A DNA stretch of 34,318 nt from NCBI GenBank assembly GCA_003731675.1, contig RCNQ01000145.1, positions 1 to 34,318 on the forward strand, written 5' to 3'. A program made the translations under genes and the position numbers. Positions 1 to 16,153 of this stretch are shown piece by piece. Position 1 is the stretch's first letter, and the number at the start of each line of letters is the position of its first letter. Under the pieces are notes generated by a model. The model ran no database searches. It saw only the letters and a program-made list of their open reading frames with translations, and was not told the origin of the DNA. This DNA is from Bacteroidetes/Chlorobi group bacterium ChocPot_Mid. GTDB lineage: Bacteria; Bacteroidota; Ignavibacteria; Kapaibacteriales; UBA2268.

Positions 1-3000
1 ATAATCTCAGGCAACGAGATAACCGGATTTGGATACGGAGTAGTTGACATGGGAGGTGGTGCATTGATGAGAATCGGGCACAACCAATGGACAAAATACT
101 ACAACAGCAACAACACGATAAGCAACAACGTAATCAAGAATGTAAGTCGTGCAGGAATCTGGTTAGGCTACACAGAGAACGAAAAAGTAACAGGCAACAG
201 GATCTACAACGTAACAGGCTTGGGAGCCAACACATACTTAGAAGGCGGCAACCCAGTCAACTACGATGCAGGAGGAATACTTGCAGGAGGCGACCCATAC
301 CAGACAACATGGAAGGGCTTCAACAACATAGATTTATTAATCTCAGGCAATGAGATAAGCAATGTAACCTCGAACTACATAGCATACGGAATCAAAGTAG
401 AGCAGAGCTTAATAAGCTATCCGAAGACCCCAACAGACACATACTTCCCTGACAGGTCAGAGAACACAACAGTAATGAACAACATAGTCTGGGGCTTAAC
501 AACAGCATACAATGTATCAAGAGTAGGCATCAGGGTATTTACAGAGCGCGTAAGCATAGCAGCAACAAACTTTTTGAATGCCAAAGTGCCGACCTACTTT
601 ACAACAGGCGACAAGATAATGAACAACACAGTAATCATGCCAGACGACGAAGGCAAGACAACAGGTGGATTAGCATGTATCGCATTGCAGCACTCCAATG
701 GAGGCAAAATACTAAACAATGCAGTAGCAATGCTCGACAACTACGTTGACGTAAGATTAATCGGATCGGGAGGTTCACCAGCCGCATCAGCAATATTCTA
801 TCAAGGAGTAATGCCGGGCGAGACAAATGGCTTAGAGTCTAACAGGAATGCATTCTGGCAACCAGCAGCATACTTGCCACACGAAGGACCATCAGCATAC
901 GGATTCGTAGAATTAGATGTGGACGGAAGCTTCATCGAGCCATCAGTAGCAGGACAATACCAGATATTGGGCTACGAGACATTACGTCAATGGAGGAACT
1001 GGACAAATCAGGATTACAACTCAGTAATAGCGAACTTCACAGACGACTTAGAGTACACAGGCACATCTGTACAATACTTGAGAGTAAAGAACCCAAGACC
1101 ATTTGGTTCAGTACTCAATGACAGAGGCTTCAGACTGACAGAATACTTAGGAGGTGGAGTAGGAACATACAATTACGATGCATTTGGCACTCAAAGAGGC
1201 GTAAACGGACAGTTATACGACATAGGAGCTGAAGAATTCGAAGGACAGATGTACTTAAGCGATGTAGAGTTCCAGATGATAAGCTCACCGAGTGCATACA
1301 AATCAGGCGTAGGAACATTCTCAGACGCAGAGCACATAATGACAACCTTACCGATAGACTTCAAGGTAATCTTGAGGAACAGCGGTAACATATTCCAGGC
1401 AGCAACAAAGGTAAGATTGGAAGTAATCAGTACAGATGCTGGGATACACTACTATGACACAGTAACAACAGACATCGTAGTAGCACAGAGCAAAGAAGTA
1501 ACGTTCAAGATACCGAACAGCATAATCAAGACATACTCAGAATTACCAGGAGTAACAGTGCCGTCGAGATTTGACCCGACAATGAAGGCAAACGTAACAC
1601 CGGTTTACACATTCAAAGTAGAGGTACAGGCAGATGAGAACAATGAGAACAACAACGGCGAAGCCGACTTCAGGTTCTACATCAGGCAATCGAATGCCAA
1701 GTTGATGGTAATCAGTGCAGAATATGCCAACACACTTGTAGAGAACGGTGGAACGACAGTAAGGACAGTAGATGAATTAGCAGGAAGATTGAACTACAAA
1801 GCATTGCAGGATGCATTCGAGAAGATGAAGCTATGGCCAAGAATAAACAGAGACATAGACTATCCAGGCGACCAGATGGACACATTCAAAGTTGACGTAT
1901 TCGACAGAATGTCATGGGAGCCGAAGAGTGTAGATTACAGGATGTACAAATATGTATTCTGGTCAGACAGGAACGACTCAAGCGGAAGCCCGTTAGCATT
2001 GAACCAGCTGACAAGATACCAGCAATGGGATTTGAGAGAATTCCTTGATGCAGGAACAACAAACAACAAGAGGAACCTGATAATAGCTAGTCAGGAAGCA
2101 GTAAGAAATGCAAGCTTCAGTGGCGATGCAAAAGCAGTCAAGTTCATGAACGAGACATTGAGAGCAGTTTACACAGACGACACTAAGAAGGGACAAGCCT
2201 TTGGCATAGGAACGAACTGCAACTTGAAGCAGATAAAAGGTGTAGCCTTAGGCAAAGACTTCATCCAATTGGTAAAAGAGACAGGAGCATACTTTGATTA
2301 TCCGACATCGGCAAACAGAGTATACGACATGTTCCCGAAAGTAGGCTTTGTAAGCTTATTCACCAAGGGCGAAGGCATAGCCAAAGAGAGCCATGTATAT
2401 CCGGGCACAACACCAGCTAACCTAAACACAGGCGTAGCAATGACAACATTGACCAAGAACGTAATCTACATAGGTATAGACTGGAGACACTTTGGAGACC
2501 CAGAAGCAATCTTAAGGTCAGTAATGGATTACTACGACAAGAATGGTGGAACAGAGATACCAATCGAATTGGCAGACTTCAATGCAAAAGCAAGGACGAA
2601 CAGAGTAGAAATCAGCTGGGTAACCGAGAGCGAGTTAAACAGTGAGAAATTCGAAGTCGAAAAAGCTGTAGTCAAAGAAGGAGTCAAGGAGAGCTTTGCG
2701 AAGATAGCAGAAAAAGCAGCGGCAGGCAAGAGCAGTATCAAGCTTGAATACGGACCGGTCGTAGACAGGGAAGTAGTCAAAGGCGGACAATACATCTACA
2801 GATTGAAGATGATAGACAAAGACGGAAGATACGCATACAGCAATGAGAGAATGGTAGAAATCGGAGGCGAAGGCTTGTGGTTAGGCGAAGCAACGCCAAA
2901 CCCAGTAGAAGGCATAGCAAAATTCGAGATAGCAACAGGCGACAAGGGAATAGAGATGTACGTATATGACGTCAATGGAAGAGAAATGGGATTGAAGCAT

Positions 3001-3117
3001 GAAATCAAGGACGGACTGTTAGAAATAGACATGAGCGGAGTAATTAGCGGAGTCTATACAGTAGTTTTGAAATCAGGCGATATGATGATAACCAGGCAAG
3101 TTAGAGTCGTAAGATAA
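1..3117 (+). CDS. Large secreted surface protein, 5'-truncated by the window edge: parallel beta-helix (PbH1-type) repeats, Ig/CARDB-like middle region, Fn3-like module and C-terminal T9SS (Por) sorting domain
   Basis: Frame 1 is open from nt 1; IISGNEITGFGYGVVD precedes the first Met at 49, so the true start lies upstream of the window. Repeated xISGNEIxNV / NNxIxNV segments are typical of right-handed beta-helix proteins. The C-terminus (ATPNPVEGIAKFEI...MYVYDVNGREMG...GVYTVVLKSGDMMITRQVRVVR) matches the T9SS C-terminal domain pattern. A strong terminator follows. Confidence 0.8.
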   Translation: MISGNEITGFGYGVVDMGGGALMRIGHNQWTKYYNSNNTISNNVIKNVSRAGIWLGYTENEKVTGNRIYNVTGLGANTYLEGGNPVNYDAGGILAGGDPYQTTWKGFNNIDLLISGNEISNVTSNYIAYGIKVEQSLISYPKTPTDTYFPDRSENTTVMNNIVWGLTTAYNVSRVGIRVFTERVSIAATNFLNAKVPTYFTTGDKIMNNTVIMPDDEGKTTGGLACIALQHSNGGKILNNAVAMLDNYVDVRLIGSGGSPAASAIFYQGVMPGETNGLESNRNAFWQPAAYLPHEGPSAYGFVELDVDGSFIEPSVAGQYQILGYETLRQWRNWTNQDYNSVIANFTDDLEYTGTSVQYLRVKNPRPFGSVLNDRGFRLTEYLGGGVGTYNYDAFGTQRGVNGQLYDIGAEEFEGQMYLSDVEFQMISSPSAYKSGVGTFSDAEHIMTTLPIDFKVILRNSGNIFQAATKVRLEVISTDAGIHYYDTVTTDIVVAQSKEVTFKIPNSIIKTYSELPGVTVPSRFDPTMKANVTPVYTFKVEVQADENNENNNGEADFRFYIRQSNAKLMVISAEYANTLVENGGTTVRTVDELAGRLNYKALQDAFEKMKLWPRINRDIDYPGDQMDTFKVDVFDRMSWEPKSVDYRMYKYVFWSDRNDSSGSPLALNQLTRYQQWDLREFLDAGTTNNKRNLIIASQEAVRNASFSGDAKAVKFMNETLRAVYTDDTKKGQAFGIGTNCNLKQIKGVALGKDFIQLVKETGAYFDYPTSANRVYDMFPKVGFVSLFTKGEGIAKESHVYPGTTPANLNTGVAMTTLTKNVIYIGIDWRHFGDPEAILRSVMDYYDKNGGTEIPIELADFNAKARTNRVEISWVTESELNSEKFEVEKAVVKEGVKESFAKIAEKAAAGKSSIKLEYGPVVDREVVKGGQYIYRLKMIDKDGRYAYSNERMVEIGGEGLWLGEATPNPVEGIAKFEIATGDKGIEMYVYDVNGREMGLKHEIKDGLLEIDMSGVISGVYTVVLKSGDMMITRQVRVVR

Positions 3118-3276: not shown

Positions 3277-4467
3277 TTAACATCCTCCCACAACTCTCTT
3301 TTGAGTCTTCTTTACTGGTCCTGCCGATTTATTTTGTTTTATTAAATCAGGAATTATCTTACTTGCCCTCATTCTGAAACGATAAGTATATTTCTCTTCA
3401 TTAGTAGTTGTATCACTGGTAAATTTAGGCTCTAAAATTAATTTTCTAAATTCATTAAAACCACCTTTCAATACCCTAATATTTTTATATCCAAGCTCAC
3501 TTGCAATTATTGCATACTTTCTTTCAGTCAATTCATCATTAGATAAAAATATGTTCACCTTATGCCGTAAAGTCAACACCTTATTAGGCTCCTTCTCAAA
3601 CAAATTATCCAATAAAAATAATGTAGATTTAGGTAAATTCAATTGCTGGTATTCATTAGCAGACCTAAAATCAATTATCTGAATTCTTTTGTCATCACTC
3701 ATTATCCTGCAAGCAAGTTCATCAACTGTAATCTCATCGAGTTGATAAGATTTAACAATTTTTTTATCCTCAACCATTTTCAACAATGTTGCTTTTCTTT
3801 CCGGGAACATAAACGATGACAAAGCAATAAGCAACCCTATTACTCCTAAACTTAGATAATAAGGTGTAAACCGAATCACCGGCTTTTTTATCCCATTAAC
3901 TCGATTTTCAATTATTGACGTAAATACAAAAGCTAACAAAGCCGTAGCAGTTAGTAAAAAAGCAAATAATGACTGAGAAATCCCCAATGTCTCAAACATG
4001 CGTGGATTACCCCAATTAGCTGATTTGTATAATCCTTCAACAATAGGATATCCCTCCGCAAAAATCAGAACACCCAATACAGCACCACCAATAAAAATCA
4101 TAGCATCAATTTTCCCGATAGCTGCTGCACAAACGCTCGTTCCTGGACAAAATCCTCCAATCACAAACCCCAACCCCATAATCAAACCACCTATAATTGC
4201 AGACCACAGAAATGTAGGATTAATATAAATCAAACTAATATCTATCAAACCGAAATGTGCAAGTACCATAACACCAATCATGGCAACAACCCCGGCAGTA
4301 AAGAATACTCTTAATACCGTGAAGTCATAACCATAAAACAATCCGACTAATTTCTTCGATGTCGAAAAGCCTGCTTGTTCAAGAATTGCTCCGAAAAATA
4401 TACCAATTATCAGAGCAACTATGAAATTCAAGTCATTACTAATTATATCAGGAACTAATGGTCCCAT
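3277..4467 (-). CDS. YeeE/YedE-family sulfur-compound transporter half fused to a C-terminal rhodanese-like domain that lacks the catalytic Cys
   Basis: The N-terminal ~220 aa are multi-TM and carry the YeeE/YedE signature GGFCPGTSVCAAA. Residues ~245-340 (IQIIDFRSANEY...RVLKGGFNEF) look rhodanese-like. The active-site loop reads IFLSNDELTER, with Ser309 (codon 3541-3543) where Cys is expected. The protein ends ...KRVVGGC. SD AAGGAGA lies 8 nt upstream of the ATG. Confidence 0.8.
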   Translation of the reverse strand: MGPLVPDIISNDLNFIVALIIGIFFGAILEQAGFSTSKKLVGLFYGYDFTVLRVFFTAGVVAMIGVMVLAHFGLIDISLIYINPTFLWSAIIGGLIMGLGFVIGGFCPGTSVCAAAIGKIDAMIFIGGAVLGVLIFAEGYPIVEGLYKSANWGNPRMFETLGISQSLFAFLLTATALLAFVFTSIIENRVNGIKKPVIRFTPYYLSLGVIGLLIALSSFMFPERKATLLKMVEDKKIVKSYQLDEITVDELACRIMSDDKRIQIIDFRSANEYQQLNLPKSTLFLLDNLFEKEPNKVLTLRHKVNIFLSNDELTERKYAIIASELGYKNIRVLKGGFNEFRKLILEPKFTSDTTTNEEKYTYRFRMRASKIIPDLIKQNKSAGPVKKTQKRVVGGC

Positions 4468-4482
4468 TGTATTATCTCCTTA

Positions 4483-4998
4483 TCATATCCAAAATTTTCT
4501 AAAAAAATAAGCAAATCCATAAGCTCCACCGAATATTGCGAACATTGTAATAATACCTCCGGTGGACATTACTGCCATGCCACTTAAAGCCGCACCACTT
4601 GTGCAACCCCTGCCAAGTTGAGAACCAAACCCCCAGAGCAAACCTCCAATAATTGCCCCAAAAACCCTTATTCTATTTGTTGTCCTTGGACCTTTCTCTA
4701 ACTTAAAATTCAATCGGTTTGAAATCAATCCCGAAATAAAAGCACCAATTAATACTCCCACAATTTCAAAAACTAACCAATTCATCAATGGGCTTCCAGA
4801 ATGCTCCCCCGAATACTCCTTATAAAACTTTGCTGTTTGTGTATGTTCTGGAGCTACTGTTTCAACTGTAGCTACAGTAAAACTTTTGATAGCTCCACTT
4901 GCACCTAACCCTCTACCGGTAATGTAAATCGTTGCAACAAGTAAAATGCCCAACAAAACACCTGCAAGGTAAGGATTCATATATTGTTTCTCTTCCAT
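4483..4998 (-). CDS. YeeE/YedE-family sulfur-compound transporter half
   Basis: 171-aa polytopic membrane protein with the second YeeE/YedE signature GRGCTSGAALSG. It lies 15 nt upstream of the other half and 2 nt downstream of the cytochrome b gene. Confidence 0.8.
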   Translation of the reverse strand: MEEKQYMNPYLAGVLLGILLVATIYITGRGLGASGAIKSFTVATVETVAPEHTQTAKFYKEYSGEHSGSPLMNWLVFEIVGVLIGAFISGLISNRLNFKLEKGPRTTNRIRVFGAIIGGLLWGFGSQLGRGCTSGAALSGMAVMSTGGIITMFAIFGGAYGFAYFFRKFWI

Positions 4999-5000
4999 AT

Positions 5001-5675
5001 CTATTTATCCTCCAAAATTGTTTTATTTTCATCAGCTAATTCCTCTTTCTTCTCTTCACCATCTTCATTTTCCAATTCTTCGTATCCAGTCAACATCGCT
5101 TTTAAATTCGAAGTAATTGTTTCGCCTGTTGTTATCAAATATAAATGAACAACTATAAAAGCAATCAGAATAAAAGCGGCTAAAGTATGCAAAACAGCTA
5201 TAATTTCTAACGATTCAATATTCATCGCTTGTACCCCATGTCTGGTTGGATACCTGTAAAACATATAAAATAAACCCGAAGTTACTATCACAGGAATCAC
5301 AATAATCTTTAATCCGAAATACGTTAATTTCTGCAGTGGATTCAGCTTGCTCAACACAGTCTTTTTTGTCGGATGTGGAGCATTCTTAAAAATTCCAAAA
5401 ATATAATAATTCAACTGAGCTTTAATATTCTTCAAAGTCGGTATATATTGCTTCCATTCACCTGTGGTGAAATGCCAAAATATCGCAAAAACAATAAGAA
5501 TTAAAAACATATACGCTGCTATTGTGTGATATCTCACAGCATCCCTAAATCCAAAAAAACTATATACCCCATGGATTTCAAAACCAGAAAATGCTAAAAA
5601 GAAAATCAACAAAGCTTGCATCCAATGCCAAAAACGCTCAAATGACTTATATACCAAAAACAATTTTTTACTCAT
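5001..5675 (-). CDS. b-type cytochrome membrane subunit (Ni/Fe-hydrogenase / PhsC / FdnI-like cytochrome b family)
   Basis: FERFWHWMQALLIFFLAFSGFEIHG is the N-terminal motif of the cytochrome b561/Ni_hydr_CYTB type. There are four hydrophobic helices with conserved His (HW, HT, HF, HL). ATGA start/stop overlap with the octahaem gene. Confidence 0.75.
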   Translation of the reverse strand: MSKKLFLVYKSFERFWHWMQALLIFFLAFSGFEIHGVYSFFGFRDAVRYHTIAAYMFLILIVFAIFWHFTTGEWKQYIPTLKNIKAQLNYYIFGIFKNAPHPTKKTVLSKLNPLQKLTYFGLKIIVIPVIVTSGLFYMFYRYPTRHGVQAMNIESLEIIAVLHTLAAFILIAFIVVHLYLITTGETITSNLKAMLTGYEELENEDGEEKKEELADENKTILEDK

Positions 5676-7246
5676 TTGACACCTCTCTTATCCTTAAATG
5701 AATTAATAACTCTCAATGCACCATGAACAAATACCCCAGCAAATGATGCAACGATTAATAATAGTCCTAATACTTCAACCGGCTTTGAATAATCCCTCCC
5801 AGGCATATAAAAGTCAGTCAATCCGGCAAGTCTCGAATTATTGCGAGTATGACACTCACTACATTTCACTGCATTCTCTTTTGGAGAAACCATATGATTT
5901 ATAGGCCAATACATCACAGTCTCAATAAAAGACACCTTACCGCTAAATGGCAAATTTGCATCTCTCATTCCTACCTCAGATGCAGTTTGCCAGTTGAAAT
6001 CTTTCCAAAAAGCTCCTTCTCCTTTATTCTCAGCAAAAAGCTTTGGCTGTATTAAAATTCTGTTTACCGGGTCATAAGGTTGCTTGGCTTTATGAATTTT
6101 GACAGGAACAATTTTGGATTCATCATCTGAATATGAACCATTCAATTTATTCAATACCAAAGGTTTTGAAGTATCTTCAATTTTATCCCCTTCCAAGTAA
6201 TGAGTAGCTGTCCCATTGAACCAGATATAATCAGGCTTTACATTTTTCTTCCAAATGAACTTTCCTTTAATTGACATATAAGCATGATTGCCCATACTAT
6301 CTTCTTCCACATAAGGTTCACCATTTCTCAATTTCCCTGCTTGTGACCAATCCCAATACATTTTTGTAGCATTTACTTTTGCATAAGTCGGTATGTGACA
6401 ACTCTCACAAGCAACTTTTAGAGTATGCTTATTCAACATATCATCATCATGAGGGTTATTCGTATGACATTGCTCACAATTATTACGATTTGTACATGTT
6501 GATGCCATTGAAAACAACTTCCCGGAAATAACATGTTTTTCAGTTAAATGACAATCAACACACTGCATATTCATACCATCAGTCCCCATATGCACATCAA
6601 CATCCCTTGTTGGTTCAAACATCGACATCTCCAGGTCTCCATGCTTGACATTGTTGCCTCCACCACCATAAAAATGACACACTCCACAATTTGTCCGTTT
6701 AGGTTTGCCAACATTCTCAGCAATTTTATTAAAATCCAACGTAGCAACCGGAGCTCCACCTTTTTCCTGAGCTTTCACGTAGGTTTCAGTATTGTCATGA
6801 CATACCAAACAATCTATATTAGATGAATCCGTATAAATTTTTCCCTTGGCATCCATACCAAACCCTATATGACACTTAGCACAACTTTCTTCATTCCCCT
6901 TAGTACCAATGCAGAAATTATTTATAGCATTCTTCTTACCAATATATACTATTCCACGCCCCTGAATATATTCTTCTCTTTCCCAGTTCCAGTGATTGGA
7001 CTTCATAATTTCCTTATGCCTTTGATTATGACAGCTAATGCAAGCCAATGTAATCTGTTGAGGAGTAGTGAACTTCTGCTGCAGAATTGCAAATTTAGAA
7101 TGGTCAACCGAAGAAGTAATCTTTTTTGAATATTTCTCCTTCAGTTTCATTAAAGTAGTTGGTTCATATTCATTTTGAGACAAAACCCCAAAAGCAATAA
7201 TAATTATTAAACCAACTAATGCCAATACAACCACTATTTTCTTCAT
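5672..7246 (-). CDS. otr: Octahaem c-type cytochrome, tetrathionate reductase (Otr) family, with an N-terminal signal/anchor and a C-terminal TM helix
   Basis: Eight CXXCH motifs: CISCH, CAKCH, CLVCH, CGVCH, CVDCH, CEQCH, CESCH, CSECH. The N-terminal block CISCHNQ..IMKSNHWNWE...NNFCIGTKGNEESCAKCHIGFG resembles the Otr family as I remember it. Hydrophobic N-terminus MKKIVVVLALVGLIIIIAFGVL and C-terminal helix LGLLLIVASFAGVFVHGAL. Confidence 0.75.
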   Translation of the reverse strand: MKKIVVVLALVGLIIIIAFGVLSQNEYEPTTLMKLKEKYSKKITSSVDHSKFAILQQKFTTPQQITLACISCHNQRHKEIMKSNHWNWEREEYIQGRGIVYIGKKNAINNFCIGTKGNEESCAKCHIGFGMDAKGKIYTDSSNIDCLVCHDNTETYVKAQEKGGAPVATLDFNKIAENVGKPKRTNCGVCHFYGGGGNNVKHGDLEMSMFEPTRDVDVHMGTDGMNMQCVDCHLTEKHVISGKLFSMASTCTNRNNCEQCHTNNPHDDDMLNKHTLKVACESCHIPTYAKVNATKMYWDWSQAGKLRNGEPYVEEDSMGNHAYMSIKGKFIWKKNVKPDYIWFNGTATHYLEGDKIEDTSKPLVLNKLNGSYSDDESKIVPVKIHKAKQPYDPVNRILIQPKLFAENKGEGAFWKDFNWQTASEVGMRDANLPFSGKVSFIETVMYWPINHMVSPKENAVKCSECHTRNNSRLAGLTDFYMPGRDYSKPVEVLGLLLIVASFAGVFVHGALRVINSFKDKRGVK

Positions 7247-7411: not shown

Positions 7412-7445
7412 TTCTATGTTGCAAAAATACACTTACAACATAGAA
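7412..7445. repeat. Perfect 10-bp inverted repeat TTCTATGTTG-N14-CAACATAGAA between the two respiratory operons; candidate weak terminator or operator
   Basis: Read directly: 7412-7421 is the reverse complement of 7436-7445. It lies 39 nt downstream of the stop of the NrfD-cytochrome gene on the minus strand. A T5 run follows 5 nt after the stem on the minus strand. Function is not established. Confidence 0.4.
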
Positions 7446-7483: not shown

Positions 7484-9397
7484 TTATTTATCAAACCTGT
7501 TTGGTAAAACAACCCATTTATTATTTTCAAATTTTTCAAATAATTTTCTTTCGTAGATAAACTTCTGTACTTCAAAATGGCATTTTGAGCATTTTGTTAG
7601 ATTCGGATTATTAATTTTAATAAGAGAATCAGTTTTTAATTTTTCCTCATGACAACCAATACACATTTTGTGCAAAGCATCTGTATATGATAAAGTGATA
7701 TATGACTTAATTTCTTTTATTTTTGAATCTGAAGGGATAAGTTGCTTATGACATTTCTCGCATTTTTTAACTGCAAGATTTTTATTTTGAGAACTTTCGG
7801 ATTTTATATTTCTGAATTCAAATCCCTTACTAATATTTTTATTGTGACATTCAAAGCAGGACAAGTTTGCTCCTTGAGATGAACTATGCCAGTTATGTCT
7901 GAAAGCATCACCTTCCTGATACATATAACTGTGGCATTCATAACATCCTGTCGCTTTATCTCCAGGTTTATTCATGTGATGACATTGACCACAACTTATG
8001 CCCTTTTGCTGATGAAAAACATGTTTAAACGCAACACCATAGTTATTCCTGTTACCATCAATGAGCAGTGTATCTGCGCCTCTTGCCTTACTTACTTCAG
8101 TGCTGTCAATTCCCTTCTTCTCAAGTTTTGTCCCTGATATCAACGCAAAGCTCAAAGCAAATGCAAGAACAAACATAAACGAAAATTTTGTTCTGTTAAC
8201 AACTTTGGTCGGTCCCAAATAAATATTGAAAGAATTAAATTTCGGTTTAACTTTTGCAGGAGCATCAGGGTCTTCCGGAGTATGCTCCCATACTTTGAAA
8301 TTTTCGATAAAGAAGAAAAACGCCAACATTGCAAGCGATACTACTCCTGCAGAAATAAATATCTCCATCCATGATGGAAAATAAAATTTACCTATTTCTG
8401 AAAGATTATTTAGATGTGTTAATCCACCAACATTTAACCTGTTAAATACAATTCCGGTTACTCCAGAGAGTGCCGCTATGTAAAGAAAATTGATACTCCT
8501 GGATAATTTGGGGACAGATAGAATTATTAAAGGAATAATCACAGAAATGAAAATTTCCATCCAGAACAAATATGTGCCCCAAGCATTATCATACAAGAAA
8601 ATTCCTGCTCCTCTGAAAATTATGTCTCCAAATCTAAATGCAGAATAAATTCCAATCATCCACAGAGCATACTTTCTCAGCTTTATTAAAATATGATTTT
8701 CAGGTTCTCTCTTATATAGCCAGCTTGTCGTCATGCTTTCAACCATAACCATCATTAAACCAAGATAGATAGCAGAGATAAAGAAAATCAATGGAATTAT
8801 AGGTGAATACCATAATGGATGTAATCTGTAAGGCATTGCTAAAAACAAACTACCTAAAGAAGATTGATGCAACGTTGAGAGCATAATTCCCAAGATAACT
8901 AAAGGTATTCTGATTTTAAATAATACCTTATGAATTTTAGCCAACAATGGGATATTTGGATATTTTTCAAGAACAACTGGTGTAAATTCCAATGTCAGTA
9001 CAGTTAAATAAAGCATTACACACCAGCCAACTTCAAACAAAGGTGAATGAGGATTCCAATAAATAATCAAATGCCAAATATTCCACGGTAGTCCAAGGTC
9101 AAACAACAAACCAACGGCAACAGCAACGTAGCCCAAAAAAGCTGTTAAAATAGCCGCTCTTGATATAGGATGTAACTCCTTCTTCCCAAAAATATAATTA
9201 AATGCCGCTATTACAAATCCGCCTGCTGCAAGAGCAACTCCACCCATAACATCAAACCCAATCCAAAAACCCCACGGGGAATTATCTGTAAGGTTTGTTG
9301 TTACTCCTAATCCATAAATAAATCTTGTAACAGCAACAGCAGATGCAACCCCAAGAATTATCCATAATACAAGTTTTGCCTTACTTATTCTATTCAT
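7484..9397 (-). CDS. NrfD/PsrC/HmcC/DsrP-family integral membrane quinone-interacting subunit fused to a C-terminal hexahaem cytochrome c3-like domain
   Basis: The N-terminal ~400 aa are polytopic with the NrfD-type motif SPWGFWIGFDVMGGVALAAGGF. After an extra TM helix (FSFMFVLAFALSFALISG) there are six CXXCH motifs (CGQCHH, CYECH, CFECH, CEKCH, CIGCH, CSKCH). The first sits in a c3-type context, FKHVFHQQKGISCGQCHH. I prefer the start at ATG 9397 (MNRISKAK...), which has GGGAGG 6-7 nt upstream, over the ORF-track start at 9421. Confidence 0.8.
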   Translation of the reverse strand: MNRISKAKLVLWIILGVASAVAVTRFIYGLGVTTNLTDNSPWGFWIGFDVMGGVALAAGGFVIAAFNYIFGKKELHPISRAAILTAFLGYVAVAVGLLFDLGLPWNIWHLIIYWNPHSPLFEVGWCVMLYLTVLTLEFTPVVLEKYPNIPLLAKIHKVLFKIRIPLVILGIMLSTLHQSSLGSLFLAMPYRLHPLWYSPIIPLIFFISAIYLGLMMVMVESMTTSWLYKREPENHILIKLRKYALWMIGIYSAFRFGDIIFRGAGIFLYDNAWGTYLFWMEIFISVIIPLIILSVPKLSRSINFLYIAALSGVTGIVFNRLNVGGLTHLNNLSEIGKFYFPSWMEIFISAGVVSLAMLAFFFFIENFKVWEHTPEDPDAPAKVKPKFNSFNIYLGPTKVVNRTKFSFMFVLAFALSFALISGTKLEKKGIDSTEVSKARGADTLLIDGNRNNYGVAFKHVFHQQKGISCGQCHHMNKPGDKATGCYECHSYMYQEGDAFRHNWHSSSQGANLSCFECHNKNISKGFEFRNIKSESSQNKNLAVKKCEKCHKQLIPSDSKIKEIKSYITLSYTDALHKMCIGCHEEKLKTDSLIKINNPNLTKCSKCHFEVQKFIYERKLFEKFENNKWVVLPNRFDK

Positions 9398-10232
9398 TTT
9401 TACCTCCCTCTTCCAAGTCATTCATATCTGGTTTTGGATTATCCGAACTTTTTTTCTCTTCCTGTTCCTGACGTCTTTTTATTACCCAATAAGTGCCTGT
9501 CATTACTGCTCCCATTCCCAAGAAAGCGAAAGGTACTGCTCCCATTGCCCATTTGGTTGTATTTGGTAATGGTTCATTTATATCAGGATTACCAACTAAA
9601 TTTCTTCCTTTATCGAGTCTGTGATTATAATAGAATAAAAAGTCGAGAGGACAATCCTTAGAAGTTATATATAAGACATTTGTTCCACCAACTTCTTTTT
9701 CACCATAAATATGGTTCATATATTTTTGTGGTTCATTCGCTATTCTCCTCTTTGCTTCAGCCAGTAACTCATTTCTTTCACCAAATATTGTTGCTCCCGT
9801 AGGACAAGCTGAAGTACATGCTGGTTCTTTTATTTTCCCTTCCTTAATATTATAATAACAAAGAATACATTTTTTTATATAAGGGACAGCATTTTCCCAA
9901 TCATATCTTGGAATACCAAAAGGACAAGCCATCATGCAATACCTGCAACCAAGACATTTCTCCTTATCATAAATCACAGCTCCCATCTCGGTTTTATGCA
10001 AAGCACCGACAGGACATACCGAAGCACAAGCAGGTTCAACGCAATGTCTGCATTGTTTCCTGACAAAATATTTTTGATTAGATAACACGGAAGTCCAGTT
10101 GTTGGCAGATAGTCCGTCATTTTTCTGCCATTCCCTTGGCTTATCGGGAGGTAAATTATTGATTACTTTGCATGCATTAACACATTCAGCACAACCGATG
10201 CATTTTGTTATATCTGTTAATATTGCTTTCAT
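9390..10232 (-). CDS. Four-cluster [4Fe-4S] ferredoxin subunit (PsrB/NrfC/HmcB/DsrO family) with a C-terminal TM anchor and no N-terminal signal peptide
   Basis: Four Cys clusters: CIGCAECVNAC, CRHCVEPACASVCP, CLGCRYCMMACP and CILC...CTSACP. C-terminal helix AMGAVPFAFLGMGAVMTGTYWVI is followed by KRR. The N-terminus starts directly at MKAILTDITKCIGC, with no twin-arginine motif. ATGA overlap with the upstream gene. Confidence 0.8.
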   Translation of the reverse strand: MKAILTDITKCIGCAECVNACKVINNLPPDKPREWQKNDGLSANNWTSVLSNQKYFVRKQCRHCVEPACASVCPVGALHKTEMGAVIYDKEKCLGCRYCMMACPFGIPRYDWENAVPYIKKCILCYYNIKEGKIKEPACTSACPTGATIFGERNELLAEAKRRIANEPQKYMNHIYGEKEVGGTNVLYITSKDCPLDFLFYYNHRLDKGRNLVGNPDINEPLPNTTKWAMGAVPFAFLGMGAVMTGTYWVIKRRQEQEEKKSSDNPKPDMNDLEEGGKNE

Positions 10233-10942
10233 ATCGGTTCTCCTTCCTTGCCTAAAGCAATTGTTACTTCTTCTGGTGAATCAGGTGCAAATTTCCAGCT
10301 TCTCGCTGTTATCCATTGACTAATCGGCATCAAAATACAATGAGCAATTTTTGTAAAAGGTAATAGTACAAAAATCAACTCTCCACTCAATATATGTGCT
10401 AACAAAAATGCTTTGTAAGAGTCTGGATTCAATACTGAATTTCCACAAATAAATCCTGAAATGAAAGGGATAATTAGAAGAATAGGCCAAATAAAATCTT
10501 GTTTTCGGCTAATACTCCTCGATGCTCTATTCGAAACTCTCAAAACTAATATAATCAACCCAAAAACAATCGTAAGCAAGGTCAACCAATCAGCCAAACT
10601 CTTAGACAAAGTCAGCCCAAGCCAACTTACACCAATTGAATTTTCAAATAACAGAGCATGGTCAAACAATAAAATAGGGGTAAAAAGTAAACCGAAATGA
10701 AATATTATTGAAACCACACTATACAACGGTTTCACTCTTAGCGACCTTATTGGAAAAACGAATCCGAAAGTCAGTTTCATTACATAATTCATTGGTAATT
10801 TTTTTTCTCTTGATTTACCTTTTGCTTCAAAACCGTTGATAATTGAAAGAATCAACACTCTTGCCAATCCAAGTAGCATAATTGCAAATGTAAATCTAAA
10901 CAGAGGTCCTTTTGCAAATTCTAACCAAGCATCCATATACAT
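10229..10942 (-). CDS. NarI/DsrM/HmcE-like membrane b-cytochrome subunit
   Basis: 237 aa with about 5 TM helices and conserved His in the helices (IIFHFGLLF, FDHALLF, LLAHILSG, KIAHCIL). Its position next to a CCG-domain Fe-S protein is typical of DsrMK/HmcEF-type modules. Confidence 0.65.
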   Translation of the reverse strand: MYMDAWLEFAKGPLFRFTFAIMLLGLARVLILSIINGFEAKGKSREKKLPMNYVMKLTFGFVFPIRSLRVKPLYSVVSIIFHFGLLFTPILLFDHALLFENSIGVSWLGLTLSKSLADWLTLLTIVFGLIILVLRVSNRASRSISRKQDFIWPILLIIPFISGFICGNSVLNPDSYKAFLLAHILSGELIFVLLPFTKIAHCILMPISQWITARSWKFAPDSPEEVTIALGKEGEPI

Positions 10943-11004: not shown

Positions 11005-12384
11005 TTATTTATCAAAAATAATTGCTTTTAAAATTAAGTCATGCAAACCAACTAACTCACCATCAACTTTATTGTCTTCCATTAATTCTCTGAATTGCTT
11101 CTTGCAATTAGCACATGGAGCAACTACCCAATGGGCTCCTGTATCGATTATTTGTTGTGCTTTTCTTCTTCCACCTACAGAAGTTCTATATTTTCTTATT
11201 TCATCAATAGAAACAGTGCCACCTCCACCTCCGCAACAATAATTTTCACTTCTGTTTGGTGTCATTTCAACAAAATCTTTGCAGAAAGATTTCAGAATTT
11301 CTCTCGGTTGCTCGATTATCCTTGATTGTCTTGCTATATTGCACGGGTCGTGGTATGTCACTCTTTCGGTAACCACATTAGGGTCAAGTTTTATCTTGCC
11401 TTCTTTAATTAATTTATGTGTTAATTCAATGCAATGAACAATCTCAGGTGGATTTCCGCCTTCCCAGTAAGTTGGCATAAACCATGCACTTCGTGTTGCG
11501 TGCCCGCATTCACCCATAAGTATTTTCTTACATTTTAGTCTTTTAAATTCTTCTGCAATGACCAAAAGATTTCTTTTTAAAATTGCATCACTGTAAAATA
11601 AACCATAATTTATTGCATCATTTACTTTTGAACTCATTGTCCAGTTTACTCCCCCGGCACTCATAGCACAAGCTATACCCATCAAAGATTCAGCTTCCAT
11701 TAGCCAATCCGAAACCGGAGTAATAAACATATATTCCGCACCTTCAACATCAATAGGAAATTTAACATCAACTCCATGCATTTCTTTAATTTCTTCTTCC
11801 AGGAATTCTATTGAATCAGCCATACCAATCCACGGAATAGCAGATGTGTTCCTTGTCTTGCCTTCTAACTGTTCTCGTGTGGATATTAATAATGCTCTTG
11901 GCACCAAATCCATTTCAGCCATTATATAGCGTGCAAGATGTGTTAATAAACCATGGTCTATACCCATAGGACATTCCAAAACGCATTTTCTGCAAGCAGT
12001 ACATTTCCAAAAAGATTCTGCCATCTCATCAATATCTTCTTCTTTGAGTTCATAGCCACCGAATAATCTTCCGTATATTGAACCTTCAAGAGAAAAATAT
12101 CTTCTGTAAATTCTCAATAAAAGTTCCGAACGATAACATGGTATATCCTTAGGGTCTTGAGTTACCTGATAAATATGGCAGGCAACACTACATCTTGAAC
12201 ATTTTGCAGATATTTTTACATATTGCTCTAAGATTGGTCTGTAGTTTGAATGCTTAAGAATCACTGCAAAAATCTCTAAAAATCTTTTGACCCTATCTCC
12301 TTTCGGTGGTTTTTCAATGATATATTTCATTTCAGGAGTTGTTTTACCTTCTGCTTTATTCCAAATATTTTTTTCTTTAAACAT
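11005..12384 (-). CDS. HdrD/DsrK/HmcF-like iron-sulfur protein with CCG domains (heterodisulfide-reductase-like catalytic subunit)
   Basis: Ferredoxin-type motifs CSRCSVAC and CTACRKCVLECP. C-terminal CCG-type motifs HDPCNIAR...NYCCGGGGG...APCANCKKQF, and an earlier GECGHATRS-containing repeat. No TM segment or signal peptide. Confidence 0.75.
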   Translation of the reverse strand: MFKEKNIWNKAEGKTTPEMKYIIEKPPKGDRVKRFLEIFAVILKHSNYRPILEQYVKISAKCSRCSVACHIYQVTQDPKDIPCYRSELLLRIYRRYFSLEGSIYGRLFGGYELKEEDIDEMAESFWKCTACRKCVLECPMGIDHGLLTHLARYIMAEMDLVPRALLISTREQLEGKTRNTSAIPWIGMADSIEFLEEEIKEMHGVDVKFPIDVEGAEYMFITPVSDWLMEAESLMGIACAMSAGGVNWTMSSKVNDAINYGLFYSDAILKRNLLVIAEEFKRLKCKKILMGECGHATRSAWFMPTYWEGGNPPEIVHCIELTHKLIKEGKIKLDPNVVTERVTYHDPCNIARQSRIIEQPREILKSFCKDFVEMTPNRSENYCCGGGGGTVSIDEIRKYRTSVGGRRKAQQIIDTGAHWVVAPCANCKKQFRELMEDNKVDGELVGLHDLILKAIIFDK

Positions 12385-12810: not shown

Positions 12811-14607
12811 ATGAAAAAAGAAATCTCTAAATATATTGCAAATAATTTGTTCGATTTAGTACCTTATAATATTGCTATAATCGACAGAGAACATAATATC
12901 ATTGAAGCCAATAAAAACTTCCGTGAGTATTTTGGTAAAGAAGAAAAAAAGAAATGCTACGAAGTTTATAAAAACCATGGTAAGAAATGTCTCCATTGCC
13001 AAATAGACAGAGTTTTTGATTTTGGTGAAACTGTTGTTTCCAATGAATCAGGTATTGACAAAAATGGCAGAACATGTCATTACATCGTACACCTCGCACC
13101 CATAAGAAACGATAAAAATGAAATCAATTATGTCATTGAAATGTCGGTTGATATTACTGATACAACAAAGTTTCAGGAACAGTATAATCTGCTATTTGAA
13201 AAGGTTCCAAGTTATCTTACTATCATTGACAAGGATTTCAGAATTGTTCGTGCCAATAAAAAATTCCGTGATACTTTCGGTGACAGCAAAGGGAAAAAAT
13301 GTTATGAAGTTTATAAAAAGAGAAAAAGAAAATGCAGATATTGCCCTGCTTCACAAACTTTTAAAGATGGGGAGGAGCATATTTCAGCTGAAGTCGGAAA
13401 ATCTTTTTTAGGTACAGAAACACATTACATTGTCAACACTACTCCTCTTTCGACTACAAGAGAAGGTGTACAGTTGGTTATGGAAATTGCTACAGATATT
13501 TCCGAGCTACATCAATTAGAAGAACAATTACGCAAAGCTCATGACTTTTATGCATCATTAATTGAAAATGCAGAGGATGGTATTATTGCAATTAATGAAA
13601 ATAATAAAGTAGAAGTAATGAATCGCTCGGCAAAAAATATACTTGAATGGGAGTCATTTAAAAAACCTGTTATAAGCCAGCTTAAGGAAATGCTACCTGC
13701 TGAATTTTTTGATGACAATGACATTGATTCAAATACTAAACTAAACGAAACCATAATTAGAACAATCAACGGAAAACAAATTCCTGTGAAATTTAATACA
13801 CTTCATTTGTCAAGTAAGAAGAAGTCCATTGGCAAGGTTGCTTTTATACAGGATTTACGTTCAATCATAGAACTTGAAAAACAAAAGCTTGAAGCCGAAA
13901 GATTAGGAGCTGTCGGGCAAACAGTTGCAGGTTTGGCTCATACAATCAAAAATCTTCTTATGGGACTTGAAGGTGGTATGTATATTGTTGATATTGGGCT
14001 TCGCAAAGGTGATGCTTCAAGAATTGTTGAAGGCTGGGAAATCCTACAAAAGAATTTTTATAAAACAACTAATCTTGTAAAAGGTTTCTTATCATTTGCT
14101 AAAGGAAAATTGCCTGCTTTGACACTGACTAATCCCAATAAAATAATCGAAGATATTATTGAATTATATAAAGAAACTGCAAAAAGTCAGAATGTGAATC
14201 TAATCGCAGATTTACAAGATAACATAAAACCTGCCTTGCTTGACCCTGAGGGCATGGAAGCTTGTCTTACAAATTTATTATCGAATGCTATTGACGCCGC
14301 TGTTCTCAGGGAAGATAAAAAAGGTCAGGTTATTCTTAGAACAAGAGATGATGGTGATAATATAATTTTTGAAGTTACAGATAATGGTTCTGGTATGGAA
14401 GCAGAAGTTTTGAAAAATGTTTTTACAACTTTTTTCACAACCAAAGGTTCAAAAGGTACAGGATTAGGTTTACTTACAACAAATAAAATAATTATCGAAC
14501 ATGGTGGTAAAATCGAAGTCGAATCTGATGTAGGAATTGGTTCAACTTTTAAGATAACATTATCAAGAAAAAAACTTGAACTCCTCGCTAAGGAAATTAT
14601 CAAATAA
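12811..14607 (+). CDS. Soluble multi-PAS sensor histidine kinase; the first two PAS domains carry a C-x10-C-x2-C cysteine triad
   Basis: No TM segments. There are three PAS-like units. Cys motifs are KKCYEVYKNHGKKCLHCQ (C49/C60/C63, plus C89 in TCHY) and KKCYEVYKKRKRKCRYCP (C164/C175/C178). H-box GLAHTIKNLL, N-box NLLSNAIDA, G1 DNGSGM, G2 TKGSKGTGLGL. Confidence 0.9.
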   Translation: MKKEISKYIANNLFDLVPYNIAIIDREHNIIEANKNFREYFGKEEKKKCYEVYKNHGKKCLHCQIDRVFDFGETVVSNESGIDKNGRTCHYIVHLAPIRNDKNEINYVIEMSVDITDTTKFQEQYNLLFEKVPSYLTIIDKDFRIVRANKKFRDTFGDSKGKKCYEVYKKRKRKCRYCPASQTFKDGEEHISAEVGKSFLGTETHYIVNTTPLSTTREGVQLVMEIATDISELHQLEEQLRKAHDFYASLIENAEDGIIAINENNKVEVMNRSAKNILEWESFKKPVISQLKEMLPAEFFDDNDIDSNTKLNETIIRTINGKQIPVKFNTLHLSSKKKSIGKVAFIQDLRSIIELEKQKLEAERLGAVGQTVAGLAHTIKNLLMGLEGGMYIVDIGLRKGDASRIVEGWEILQKNFYKTTNLVKGFLSFAKGKLPALTLTNPNKIIEDIIELYKETAKSQNVNLIADLQDNIKPALLDPEGMEACLTNLLSNAIDAAVLREDKKGQVILRTRDDGDNIIFEVTDNGSGMEAEVLKNVFTTFFTTKGSKGTGLGLLTTNKIIIEHGGKIEVESDVGIGSTFKITLSRKKLELLAKEIIK

Positions 14608-14626
14608 TATAAATAGGAGAGATGCA

Positions 14627-15163
14627 ATGAATAAAAATTATGAAAAAAAAGTTCTTGTTGTAGATGATGAAGCTGACGTTAGAAACTATTTAAGTTCAGC
14701 TTTAAAGGAATACGGCTTCAACGTTGAGACTGCAAGTGATGGTTTTGAAGCACTTGAATCTATTAAAAAGGAGATTCCCGATTTAATTTCGCTTGACTTA
14801 GTAATGCCAAAGCACTCTGGTATAAAATTTTACAGAGATTTACAGAAAAACAAAGAATGGGCTAAAATACCTGTACTGATTGTTACCGGACATGCAAGAG
14901 ATGATTTAGGCAAAGTTGATTTTGATACAATGATGATGCAAGGTCCCGGAGTTTACCTCGAAAAACCTGTGAAACCAGAAAACTATATCGAAACTGTTTG
15001 CCAGTTGCTGAATATTGAGATACCTGATGAACTAAAAAACAGAGAAAAGAGTATTGACACAGATGAACTTAGGTCTAAACTTGCTCAAACTCTGGCTGGA
15101 GCCGATGCGGATACTTTAAAAAAAGCTCTGGAATTGCTGGATAAAAAAAATGAGAAACAATAG
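14627..15163 (+). CDS. Single-domain (receiver-only) response regulator with a ~55-aa helical, acidic C-terminal tail
   Basis: VLVVDDEADV...LISLDLVMP...VTGH...YLEKPV are the receiver signature residues. There is no DNA-binding or enzymatic output domain. I prefer the start at ATG 14627, with AGGAGA at 14615-14620, over the ORF-track start at 14576, which overlaps the kinase. Confidence 0.85.
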   Translation: MNKNYEKKVLVVDDEADVRNYLSSALKEYGFNVETASDGFEALESIKKEIPDLISLDLVMPKHSGIKFYRDLQKNKEWAKIPVLIVTGHARDDLGKVDFDTMMMQGPGVYLEKPVKPENYIETVCQLLNIEIPDELKNREKSIDTDELRSKLAQTLAGADADTLKKALELLDKKNEKQ

Positions 15164-15184: not shown

Positions 15185-15562
15185 ATGAACAAAAAAATTT
15201 TAATTGTTGATGACGAACCAGATGTTGTTTCGTACCTTAACGCTTTTTTAAACGATAATGGATTCGATACAATCTCTGCAAAAAATGGAAAAGAATGTTT
15301 TGCAATCGCAAAATCTGAAAAACCAGATTTAATCACACTCGATATTACAATGCCTGAAGAATCCGGAGTTAGAGCATTTCGCAATTTAAAGGAATGCAAA
15401 GAAACAAAAAATATACCTGTCATTATTATTACTGGTGTTACAACTGATTTTCAGGAATTTTTAGGGTCAAGGAAGAATATCGAACCACCTGCGGCTTACT
15501 TCGAAAAGCCAATAGATAGAAATGATTTCTTGAAAAAAGTGTTGGAAATATTCAAATTATAA
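15185..15562 (+). CDS. CheY-like receiver-only response regulator
   Basis: 125 aa with ILIVDDEPDV...LITLDITMP...ITGV...YFEKPI. It is a paralogue of the preceding receiver. Confidence 0.9.
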   Translation: MNKKILIVDDEPDVVSYLNAFLNDNGFDTISAKNGKECFAIAKSEKPDLITLDITMPEESGVRAFRNLKECKETKNIPVIIITGVTTDFQEFLGSRKNIEPPAAYFEKPIDRNDFLKKVLEIFKL

Positions 15563-15661: not shown

Positions 15662-16153
15662 ATGCCAAGACCACATAAATGTAGAAGGATATCATCTAAC
15701 CCTGATGTAGTTTATTTTAAACCGGCAGGGCTGAGAATAAAGGAGCTTGAGGAAATATCTTTAACTTTAGATGAATATGAAGCTATACGACTGGCAGATT
15801 ATGAAGGATTGTATCAGGAAAATGCCGCCGAAAAAATGAATATTTCCAGACAAACTTTTGGAAATATTATTAATTCTGCACATCAGAAAATAGCAGATTT
15901 CCTACTTAATGCAAAAGTTTTAGTAATCAAAGGAGGTGTCATTGAAATATTAAATGAAAAAAATAAAAAGTTCAGATGTAAAGAATGTAACAATACTTTC
16001 AAGAGAAATATTAATACATTTAATACAATCAATTGTCCAAGATGTAAAAGTTCCGAAGTACATCAAATTAGTCTTTATGAAAATTTTGAATTTAAAAATC
16101 AAAGAAGAAAAAGAATGTGTAAAAGAAACAGGGAAGATGAAGATGAAAAATAA
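15662..16153 (+). CDS. DUF134 (UPF0251) family predicted DNA-binding protein with an added C-terminal zinc ribbon and a basic tail
   Basis: [10 protein letters not shown]...YFKPAG...[48 protein letters not shown] is the characteristic DUF134 sequence with a sigma-70 region-4-like HTH. The C-terminal CKECNN...CPRCKS forms a C4 zinc ribbon. Confidence 0.85.

Follow-up and report, generated by a model that had tools for sequence, protein, structure and literature searches.

A hexahaem class III cytochrome domain fused to an NrfD-family membrane subunit in a Kapaibacteriales contig: architecture, spread and putative redox complex

The Hmc, Tmc, Qrc, alternative complex III (ACIII) and DsrMKJOP complexes form the reference set for the coupling of periplasmic redox reactions, quinone and cytoplasmic sulfur reduction in anaerobes. 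An earlier note on the locus described here held that the haem c subunit of the characterised systems it named is a separate polypeptide, which agrees with published accounts (PMC6303296, PMC10924467). The locus is a gene on contig RCNQ01000145.1 (assembly GCA_003731675.1) of Bacteroidetes/Chlorobi group bacterium ChocPot_Mid, positions 1 to 34,318 of which were analysed and are called the window (GC content 34%). In this gene, a membrane subunit of the NrfD family and a cytochrome domain with six haem-binding motifs are joined in one open reading frame (ORF), which raises the questions of whether the fusion is real, on which side of the membrane its haems would lie, and what kind of complex it would serve. 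The fusion is real and under selection. Its product is likely to be the quinone-interacting, cofactor-less NrfD subunit (HmcC/HybB branch) of a four-protein redox complex of the Hmc/DsrMKJOP type, with the cytochrome subunit covalently attached.

Architecture of the Fusion Gene

The earlier note placed the gene at 7484-9397 and described an NrfD core, a linker, an extra transmembrane (TM) helix and a six-CXXCH domain in a single ORF. Pfam and NCBIfam matches and the motif positions confirm this composition. The gene is present in that interval, on the minus strand; on the plus strand the interval holds no gene, its translation giving stop codons only. The upper boundary needs qualification, as the ORF counted from the first ATG reaches 9421 and position 9397 corresponds to the second ATG (MNRISKAK..., 637 amino acids), which is the likely start because homologues begin at the equivalent position. 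The parts of the gene are as follows, where pLDDT is the predicted local distance difference test score and amino acids are numbered from the first ATG.

7484-9421, minus strand: whole fusion ORF, 645 amino acids from the first ATG, stop codon TAA at 7484-7486
8306-9397, minus strand: NrfD-family core, amino acids 9-372, ten TM helices, HmcC/HybB-like (Pfam, NCBIfam, AlphaFold2, Foldseek)
8186-8305, minus strand: K/R-rich linker, predicted cytoplasmic, amino acids 373-412 (charge counts; AlphaFold2 pLDDT 83-90)
8129-8185, minus strand: eleventh TM helix, FSFMFVLAFALSFALISGT, amino acids 413-431 (hydropathy 1.99; AlphaFold2)
7487-8128, minus strand: hexahaem class III (c3/HmcA-like) cytochrome domain, predicted periplasmic, amino acids 432-645 (Pfam, CXXCH motifs, PDB profile matches)
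7979-7993, 7931-7945, 7844-7858, 7748-7762, 7649-7663 and 7577-7591, minus strand: CXXCH motifs

Pfam NrfD (PF03916) matches amino acids 43-329 with 90.2 bits against a cut-off of 25.8, which places the protein in the NrfD/PsrC family, and Cytochrom_CIII (PF02085) matches amino acids 459-531 with 55.8 bits against a cut-off of 22.9, which places its tail among the class III cytochromes c; Cytochrome_C7 also matches above its gathering score at amino acids 546-615. The six CXXCH motifs are located at amino acids 477, 493, 522, 554, 587 and 611, and the c3-type context VAFKHVFHQQKGISCGQCHH covers amino acids 463-482. Helix FSFMFVLAFALSFALISGT is preceded by ten hydrophobic segments and the 40-amino-acid linker. 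The NCBIfam models of HmcC and HybB align end to end with amino acids 8-383, at 292 and 280 bits against 124 bits for QrcD, and that of the 16-haem HmcA aligns with part of the tail. Although HmcC is the best-scoring family, its equivalog model (NF045714) has a cut-off of 550 bits; that of HybB (NF008133) is 450 bits, and no hydrogenase genes occur among the conserved neighbours in 80 related loci. The curated cut-off of the QrcD equivalog is likewise not reached. Database labels of the fusion family are generic, namely "Ni/Fe-hydrogenase cytochrome b subunit" and "NrfD/PsrC family".

At the extreme C-terminus (7487-7540, minus strand; amino acids ~628-645), a motif NKWVV(V/L)P is conserved, with P640 in at least 90% of 138 sequences. 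The motif lies in a tail that is disordered in the AlphaFold model (pLDDT 34-53), and it may be a peptide on which a partner subunit docks.

Distribution and Reality of the Fusion

The GTDB database was scanned with one genome per species; 597 relatives were returned and 80 loci were kept, all of which cover the haem domain, while a full-length alignment holds 138 homologues with identity down to 34%. The same fused architecture is found in at least 138 full-length homologues, and it forms a single ORF in 77 of the 80 species-level loci, two others having a split reading frame (L012, L057) and one being cut by a contig end. The best 120 clusters from a collection of 5.8 billion proteins all combine NrfD with Cytochrom_CIII, at identities down to 49%, and they are 604-645 amino acids long, except for one fragment of 443 amino acids. 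The search for domain architectures and their taxonomic spread that had been proposed for this locus thus returns a recurrent combination. Its carriers belong to at least ten bacterial phyla, including Ignavibacteria/Kapabacteria, Zixibacteria, Kryptoniota, Acidobacteriota, Planctomycetota, Gemmatimonadota, Latescibacterota and Thermodesulfobacteriota, so that the fusion family is widespread, neither rare nor local. The "Hyphomicrobiales" labels on some close metagenome-assembled genomes look like mis-assignments.

None of the six CXXCH motifs varies in the 138 full-length homologues, and neither do six additional histidines (H467, H470, H482, H509, H512 and H584), a degree of conservation that chance could not produce; 136 of the 138 have exactly six CXXCH motifs. 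Because one distal histidine is available per CXXCH haem, six bis-His haems are predicted. The linker between the tenth and eleventh helices measures 34-45 amino acids (median 41). When the haem domain alone was compared with 1.84 billion representatives, 281 clusters at 50% identity were obtained, and all matches with enough N-terminal sequence and detectable homology carry an NrfD tail. The hexahaem domain is known only as the C-terminal extension of an NrfD protein. A stand-alone hexahaem domain, as an unfused ancestor would have, was sought and rejected, the short matches being contig-edge fragments (P0125 starts at nucleotide 8, and the frame of P0127 runs off its contig without a stop). 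Another match, P0150 (3806 amino acids), is a repeat protein that lacks CXXCH motifs altogether and is a false positive. Three GC-rich relatives of ~400-440 amino acids (P0223, P0239 and P0268) have several TM helices in their N-terminal region, which does not match NrfD at E<1e-3 and could be a very divergent or truncated NrfD half or a different membrane partner.

It could still be supposed that the fusion is an assembly or frameshift artefact, or that the haem domain is cytoplasmic and non-functional. The window is a single contig without usable reads, and the two split reading frames in related loci would fit such a view; reads for the junction come from a single DNA run, which covers 9% of the words and yields two unitigs of 151 nucleotides and some unrelated pieces. 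However, 138 or more independent sequences, obtained in many studies with many assemblers and including a 5.4-Mb chromosome, contain the same single ORF, the linker length is kept, the haem ligands are invariant, and the charge alternation described below puts the haem domain outside. An artefact is hardly credible and is effectively refuted already.

Membrane Topology and Relatives of the Haem Domain

The AlphaFold2 model of the fusion (pLDDT 87.3, predicted template modelling score (pTM) 0.85) shows ten helices, a linker and an eleventh helix. The pLDDT is mostly above 90 in the core and 97-98 in the eleventh helix (405-427), whose hydropathy across the 138 homologues has a mean of 1.66 and a minimum of 1.13. 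The top Foldseek matches of the core are the ActC chains of four ACIII structures (e.g. 6btm_C and 8k9e_C), with TM-scores of 0.64-0.70 on the target. HmcC, HybB, QrcD, DsrP and ActC form the 10-TM-helix branch of the NrfD family (PMC6303296), which is defined by two four-helix bundles, two extra helices and a cytoplasmic N-terminus (PMC6303296, PMC8076601); both termini of ActC are cytoplasmic, and those of the eight-helix PsrC lie outside (PMC8076601). With its ten segments before the linker, the superposition on ActC and the alternation of charge, the core of the fusion protein belongs to this branch. In the 138 sequences, the mean number of lysines plus arginines (K+R) is 3.0, 3.1, 3.0, 3.5, 2.3 and 6.6 (the linker) for the N-terminus and the odd loops, which would be cytoplasmic, and 0.12, 0.13, 0.91, 1.15 and 0.43 for the even loops, which would be periplasmic.

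This positive-inside pattern is clean family-wide, and the haem domain is predicted to be periplasmic. The attachment of c-type haem is possible only in the periplasm. Since the ten-helix core ends in the cytoplasm, the eleventh helix is needed for periplasmic haems, and it may be read as an internal signal-anchor that carries the C-terminal domain across the membrane. The note's proposal that the extra helix brings the haem domain to the periplasm is borne out by the K+R alternation together with an ActC-like core with cytoplasmic termini, and its suggested topology check ends with the domain outside and not in the cytoplasm. Conservation within the core is highest in the periplasmic loops of the first helix bundle (0.75-0.82, compared with 0.28-0.55 for cytoplasmic loops), which fits a quinone and iron–sulfur (Fe-S) docking site on the positive (P) side of the membrane, as in PsrC and ActC.

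Among solved structures, the haem-domain profile matches those of the 16-haem HmcA best (1z1n at 8e-15, 2e84 and 1h29), followed by tetrahaem c3 (1qn0/1wad) and the nine-haem 19hc, and it matches ActA weakly (6lod_A, 0.0024). A Foldseek search with a model of the haem domain only (pLDDT 71, no haems) gave no significant match, an outcome that is usual with multihaem folds. A relationship between the hexahaem domain and QrcA was considered and rejected, there being no match in the NCBIfam models.

The Four-Gene Cassette

Four minus-strand genes that overlap or lie close together encode, in order, a cytoplasmic CCG-domain protein, a cytochrome b, an Fe-S subunit and, as the last product, the fusion protein. 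The other elements of the cassette are listed below.

11005-12384, minus strand: CCG-domain Fe-S protein, predicted cytoplasmic, 459 amino acids (DsrK 303 bits, TmcB 228, HmcF 220)
10229-10942, minus strand: NarI-type di-haem cytochrome b, 237 amino acids, HmcE/TmcC-like (TmcC 107 bits, HmcE 105)
9390-10232, minus strand: Fe-S subunit, 280 amino acids, HmcB/HybA/FdnH-like (HmcB 223 bits, HybA 199; FdnH structure 1kqf_B at 1.4e-31)
7412-7445, minus strand: terminator-like hairpin (14-bp stem and T run), 39 nucleotides past the fusion stop, a consensus match only

The four genes occur in the same order in 59 of the 67 loci with enough upstream sequence, including the 5.4-Mb Kapabacteria chromosome, and in the present genome the operon of four genes probably ends at the hairpin. 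The CCG protein has two 4Fe-4S motifs and the CCG catalytic cysteine set C348, C383, C384, C424 and C427, its cysteines being invariant in 59 sequences. In the cytochrome b, the histidines H82, H95, H183 and H201 are conserved in 91-99% of 76 sequences. In the Fe-S subunit, the ligands of the four cysteine clusters are conserved, and the C-terminal TM helix has KRR after it. Architecture and topology, the ligands of the cofactors, operon structure and distribution are observed features of the family.

Some loci depart from this arrangement. Six planctomycete loci (L066, L068, L069, L072, L073 and L075) have no CCG gene at E<1e-8, and directly after their fusion gene lies a gene for a multihaem cytochrome of ~850 amino acids with paired CXXCH repeats, which may be a different output branch. 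The fusion gene stands alone in L004 (3335-5227) and L006 (8001-9896), at 61-65% identity to the window, with no CCG, cytochrome b or Fe-S gene in the available flank; in L006 it follows an ORF of 2529 amino acids and precedes queA and methylmalonyl-CoA mutase genes. In L082, genes for a CGGC-domain and a TrmO_N-domain protein (8249-9156) are inserted between the cytochrome b and Fe-S genes, and the window has none there. A second NarI-like cytochrome b and a CCG protein of ~540 amino acids, sometimes with another Fe-S protein, are encoded at most 8 kb from the cassette in ten loci (L007, L031, L037, L058, L060, L067, L070, L074, L077 and L079), and this looks like a DsrMK/HdrDE-like paralogous pair.

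Proposed Electron Path and Export of the Iron–Sulfur Subunit

Complex formation, the electron path, its direction and the substrate are proposed here by homology with the systems named above. The cytochrome counterpart of HmcA, DsrJ, QrcA or ActA would have been captured by the NrfD subunit, most simply through read-through from the NrfD gene, whose product ends in the cytoplasm, into the downstream gene of an N-terminally anchored cytochrome, and the former membrane anchor of this cytochrome would have become helix 11. The Sec machinery would thread the C-terminal domain into the periplasm, where the six haems would be attached. A periplasmic half, consisting of the hexahaem domain, the four-cluster Fe-S subunit with its tail anchor and the quinone site that the NrfD core has on the P side, would then exchange electrons between periplasmic carriers or enzymes and menaquinone, possibly with proton uptake from the cytoplasm, as shown for QrcD (PMC6303296). 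In the half that faces the cytoplasm, electrons would pass from the di-haem cytochrome b to the CCG (DsrK/HdrD-like) protein, linking menaquinol to a cytoplasmic disulfide or trisulfide. Where dsr genes occur, DsrC would be the acceptor; in other carriers of the cassette it would be a different sulfur carrier, in the window's lineage perhaps one fed by rhodanese or YeeE.

Several points weigh against this proposal. No subunit reaches the NCBIfam equivalog cut-off of HmcB, HmcC, HmcE, HmcF, DsrK or DsrO, and the cassette proteins have no match to the NCBIfam models of DsrP, DsrM or DsrJ. In most loci, the window included, no dsr genes lie within reach. The six loci without a CCG gene and the two solitary fusion genes imply that the fusion protein can exist outside the full cassette. 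The haem-to-Fe-S-to-quinone wire as drawn is putative and hinges on a periplasmic Fe-S subunit, and this subunit has neither a twin-arginine translocation (Tat) nor a Sec signal in any of 78 loci, and likewise none in the window. The idea put forward in the note, that the fusion hard-wires electron entry or exit to the quinone-site subunit, therefore stands as far as the covalent link is concerned; the wiring itself is still contingent on the location of a subunit that has no export signal.

In the window and the 78 loci, the Fe-S subunit starts ~11 residues before its first cysteine, and there is no room for an N-terminal extension because the gene overlaps the preceding one. No protein of the cassette has a twin-arginine signal. 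The C-terminal helix of the Fe-S subunit is followed by a conserved RR or KRR, with a K+R of 3.9 after the helix against 1.2 before it, a charge distribution that corresponds to the orientation of HybA, HmcB and FdnH and would put the Fe-S domain outside. It has been reported that signal-less Fe-S proteins with a C-terminal tail hitchhike on a partner with a Tat signal, FdnH on FdnG being an example (PMC10924467). No such hitchhiking partner is encoded in or near the cassette. The options for export are a partner encoded elsewhere (as in a hydrogenase or formate dehydrogenase anchor), an undescribed route, or an Fe-S subunit that faces the cytoplasm, in which case the proposed wire would break.

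The first of these options leads to a different reading, in which the fusion protein would be a HybB-type anchor of a periplasmic hydrogenase or formate dehydrogenase whose Tat-bearing catalytic subunits are encoded elsewhere and carry the Fe-S subunit across the membrane. It would account for the missing signal, and it is in line with the HybB (280 bits) and HybA (199 bits) scores and with FdnH, the best solved relative of the Fe-S subunit, being itself a signal-less, C-tail-anchored protein that hitchhikes on FdnG (PMC10924467); a pair of signal-less C-tail Fe-S and HybB-like proteins has also been reported beside a Tat-dependent FeFe hydrogenase (PMC10924467). However, the recurrent neighbours in the 80 loci are regulators, Nitro_FeMo-Co, dsr genes or cytochromes, with no conserved hydrogenase or molybdopterin gene among them, and neither Hyd-2 nor Fdh-N is known to include a fused c3-type domain, a cytochrome b and a CCG protein. 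This reading is quite improbable, and the four-protein complex of the Hmc/DsrMKJOP type remains the preferred one.

Neighbouring Genes and Sulfur Metabolism

On the far side of the hairpin, a set of genes with links to sulfur compounds lies downstream of the fusion gene, and a group of regulatory genes diverges from the cassette at its other end.

5672-7246, minus strand: octahaem Otr-family (tetrathionate-reductase-family) cytochrome with N- and C-terminal hydrophobic segments (570 bits)
5001-5675, minus strand: cytochrome b561/PhsC-like protein
4483-4998, minus strand: first half of a split YeeE/YedE sulfur transporter
3277-4467, minus strand: second YeeE half, fused to rhodanese
12811-14607, plus strand: PAS histidine kinase, divergent from the cassette
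14576-15163 and 15185-15562, plus strand: two single-domain response regulators, divergent from the cassette
15662-16153, plus strand: DUF134 protein
16354-16725, plus strand: Nitro_FeMo-Co/NifX-like protein

In L082/L083, a relative with 88% identity, the set of Otr, cytochrome b561, YeeE and rhodanese genes (L082 11963-15935) likewise comes after the fusion gene, at a distance of 52 bp. As conserved partners, Otr, cytochrome b561 and YeeE were rejected, being absent from all 80 GTDB loci; the association is thus lineage-specific, and the set is a possible physiological partner in the window's lineage only.

The Otr gene has a bearing on another explanation, according to which the fusion protein would belong to a quinol:cytochrome c oxidoreductase resembling ACIII or a reversed Qrc. 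Electrons would pass from menaquinol through the NrfD site and the Fe-S subunit to the hexahaem domain and then to a periplasmic terminal reductase, in the window's lineage the adjacent Otr-family enzyme, while the cytochrome b and the CCG protein would form a branch of their own or an accessory one. Among solved structures ActC comes closest to the core, the haem profile has its weak ActA match, and a three-gene module of tail-anchored Fe-S, HybB-like and Otr proteins has been published (PMC10924467). Otr is the next gene after the fusion gene in the window and in L082/L083, and in the planctomycete loci a large multihaem cytochrome takes the place of the CCG protein. All of this is compatible with such an enzyme, but Otr is missing from every one of the GTDB loci; in the window, it is paired with a cytochrome b561 of its own, and the terminator-like hairpin lies between it and the fusion gene. 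The co-conservation of CCG and cytochrome b genes, overlapping or closely spaced in 59 of the 67 loci, moreover argues for one complex with the fusion protein. An ACIII-like oxidoreductase is accordingly unlikely, and the Hmc/DsrMKJOP-type complex is retained in what follows.

In five loci (L022, L023, L024, L035 and L053), dsrA (586 bits), dsrB (513 bits), a DsrD-like ORF (82 amino acids), a DsrN-type amidase and a DsrL-type flavoprotein are encoded within 2-3 kb after the cassette, and dsrA/dsrB-family genes are also found near L031 and L059. In these seven loci the dsr genes span 2-8 kb downstream of the fusion gene. Overall, dsrAB is adjacent in seven of about 51 loci with enough flank, and the window is not among them. 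Between the cassette and the dsr genes, five loci have a conserved gene for a Zn-ribbon/transposase-like protein of ~375 amino acids. A bolder proposal, possible but doubtful, is that the cassette forms a distinct, unnamed class of respiratory complex. It would replace or supplement DsrMKJOP in dsrAB-bearing phyla (Kryptoniota, Ignavibacteria, Acidobacteriota and others), and in organisms that do not reduce sulfate it would act as a general conduit from periplasm and quinone to cytoplasmic thiols for thiosulfate or tetrathionate metabolism; its Fe-S subunit would be exported by an undescribed route, through either an unknown hitchhiking partner or signal-independent Tat transport.

As for the regulatory genes, families of PAS kinases and response regulators are found near the cassette in 35-37 of the 80 loci and also in L082 and L084, a sigma-54 PAS activator in 28 of the 80 loci, and the Nitro_FeMo-Co family in 20 of the 80 loci and also in L082. 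The recurrence of kinases and regulators suggests a dedicated redox-responsive regulation. The region is flanked by genes for two large proteins of secreted type, one of 1022 amino acids with a type IX secretion system (T9SS) C-terminal sorting domain and a weak NosD/beta-helix match (49-3117, plus strand) and the other a BNR/sortilin-repeat protein of 1088 amino acids (16810-20076, minus strand). The T9SS tag speaks for an origin of the contig in the Bacteroidota/FCB group, and the best named relatives of the window are Bacteroidota, Kapabacteria and Ignavibacteria.

Comparison with Known Complexes

Hmc of Desulfovibrio (HmcABCDEF), whose arrangement is set out in a 2024 study of Tat tail anchors (PMC10924467), is built from the modules found in the cassette: a multihaem cytochrome of the c3 superfamily, a four-cluster Fe-S protein with a tail anchor, an NrfD protein resembling HybB, a cytochrome b of the NarI type and a CCG protein in the cytoplasm. 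The best families of three of the four cassette products are HmcB, HmcC and HmcE/TmcC, and HmcA structures are the best solved relatives of the haem domain. Nevertheless, the cassette cytochrome has six haems instead of 16 and is fused to the HmcC-like core through an extra TM helix, and the cassette lacks HmcD and a separate HmcA, so that it does not have the composition of an Hmc complex. The gene order is F-E-B-C(A') compared with A-B-C-D-E-F in Hmc, HmcB has a Tat signal and the Fe-S subunit of the cassette has none, and the cassette is found mostly outside the classical sulfate reducers.

DsrMKJOP follows the same logic of five modules, namely a cytochrome b, a CCG protein, a periplasmic cytochrome c, an Fe-S protein and an NrfD protein. 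The CCG subunit of the cassette scores best against DsrK, and dsrABDNL genes lie beside the cassette in seven loci. The complex is defined by a tri-haem DsrJ with a His/Cys haem, DsrM, DsrK, DsrO and DsrP equivalogs and co-occurrence with dsrAB/dsrC. Here, DsrK reaches 303 bits against a cut-off of 400 and DsrO 102 against 200, and there is no match to DsrJ, DsrM or DsrP. It differs also in that the cassette cytochrome is of the six-haem c3 type with all haems predicted to be bis-His and is fused to the NrfD subunit. A His/Cys haem has been reported for DsrJ (10.1101/2025.05.29.656830), but a haem of that type is absent from the fusion because the haem domain has no conserved cysteine outside the CXXCH motifs.

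In ACIII and Qrc, as in the cassette, an NrfD-like subunit of ten TM helices is combined with an Fe-S subunit on the P side and with a cytochrome of five or six haems that is anchored in the membrane (PMC6303296). That cytochrome, ActA or QrcA, is a polypeptide of its own, unlike the fused one of the cassette, and these complexes contain a cofactor-less molybdopterin-like protein with a Tat signal and have no cytochrome b/CCG half. ACIII is characterised by ActB (molybdopterin-like and Fe-S parts fused), two NrfD-like subunits (ActC and ActF), ActA and ActE; the cassette has one NrfD-like gene and a small stand-alone Fe-S protein, with no ActB1, ActD, ActE or ActF. Another fusion of an inner-membrane quinone subunit to a periplasmic multihaem c-type domain is CbcL of Geobacter sulfurreducens. 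Its membrane part, unlike that of the present protein, is a di-haem cytochrome b of the HydC/FdnI type, its haem domain is unrelated and has another haem count, and CbcL is not known to belong to a CCG-containing cassette. In the Otr module (PMC10924467), the Fe-S gene lies directly upstream of the HybB-like gene, which is followed by the Otr octahaem gene, as in the window and L082/L083. In that module, however, a Tat signal is present on the Fe-S protein and no cytochrome is fused to the HybB-like protein, whereas here a cytochrome b/CCG pair is added and Otr is lineage-specific. Judged from its genes, the cassette would work like an Hmc or Dsr complex but belongs to no named one.

Significance

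No description of an NrfD–cytochrome c fusion or of the four-gene cassette was found in the literature searched. The sequences are public and the Pfam architecture is visible, but the fusion and the cassette are undescribed in the literature found. Gene fusions in respiratory complexes are not rare, and the fusion itself is therefore only mildly surprising. Its interest lies in the breadth of the family, the recurrent link with dsr and other sulfur genes in poorly known phyla, and the puzzle of Fe-S export, the signal-less Fe-S subunit being a concrete and testable export problem. The covalent one-to-one link between cytochrome and NrfD makes the protein an attractive minimal structural system for the coupling of electron transfer and proton uptake in NrfD subunits, and the annotation "hydrogenase cytochrome b subunit" is misleading for the family. 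To the reference set of complexes, the family adds a compact four-gene member with its own set of kinases and regulators, in phyla known mostly from metagenomes. If it is indeed a complex that reduces DsrC or another sulfur carrier, genome predictions keyed to the canonical dsrMKJOP would miss it.

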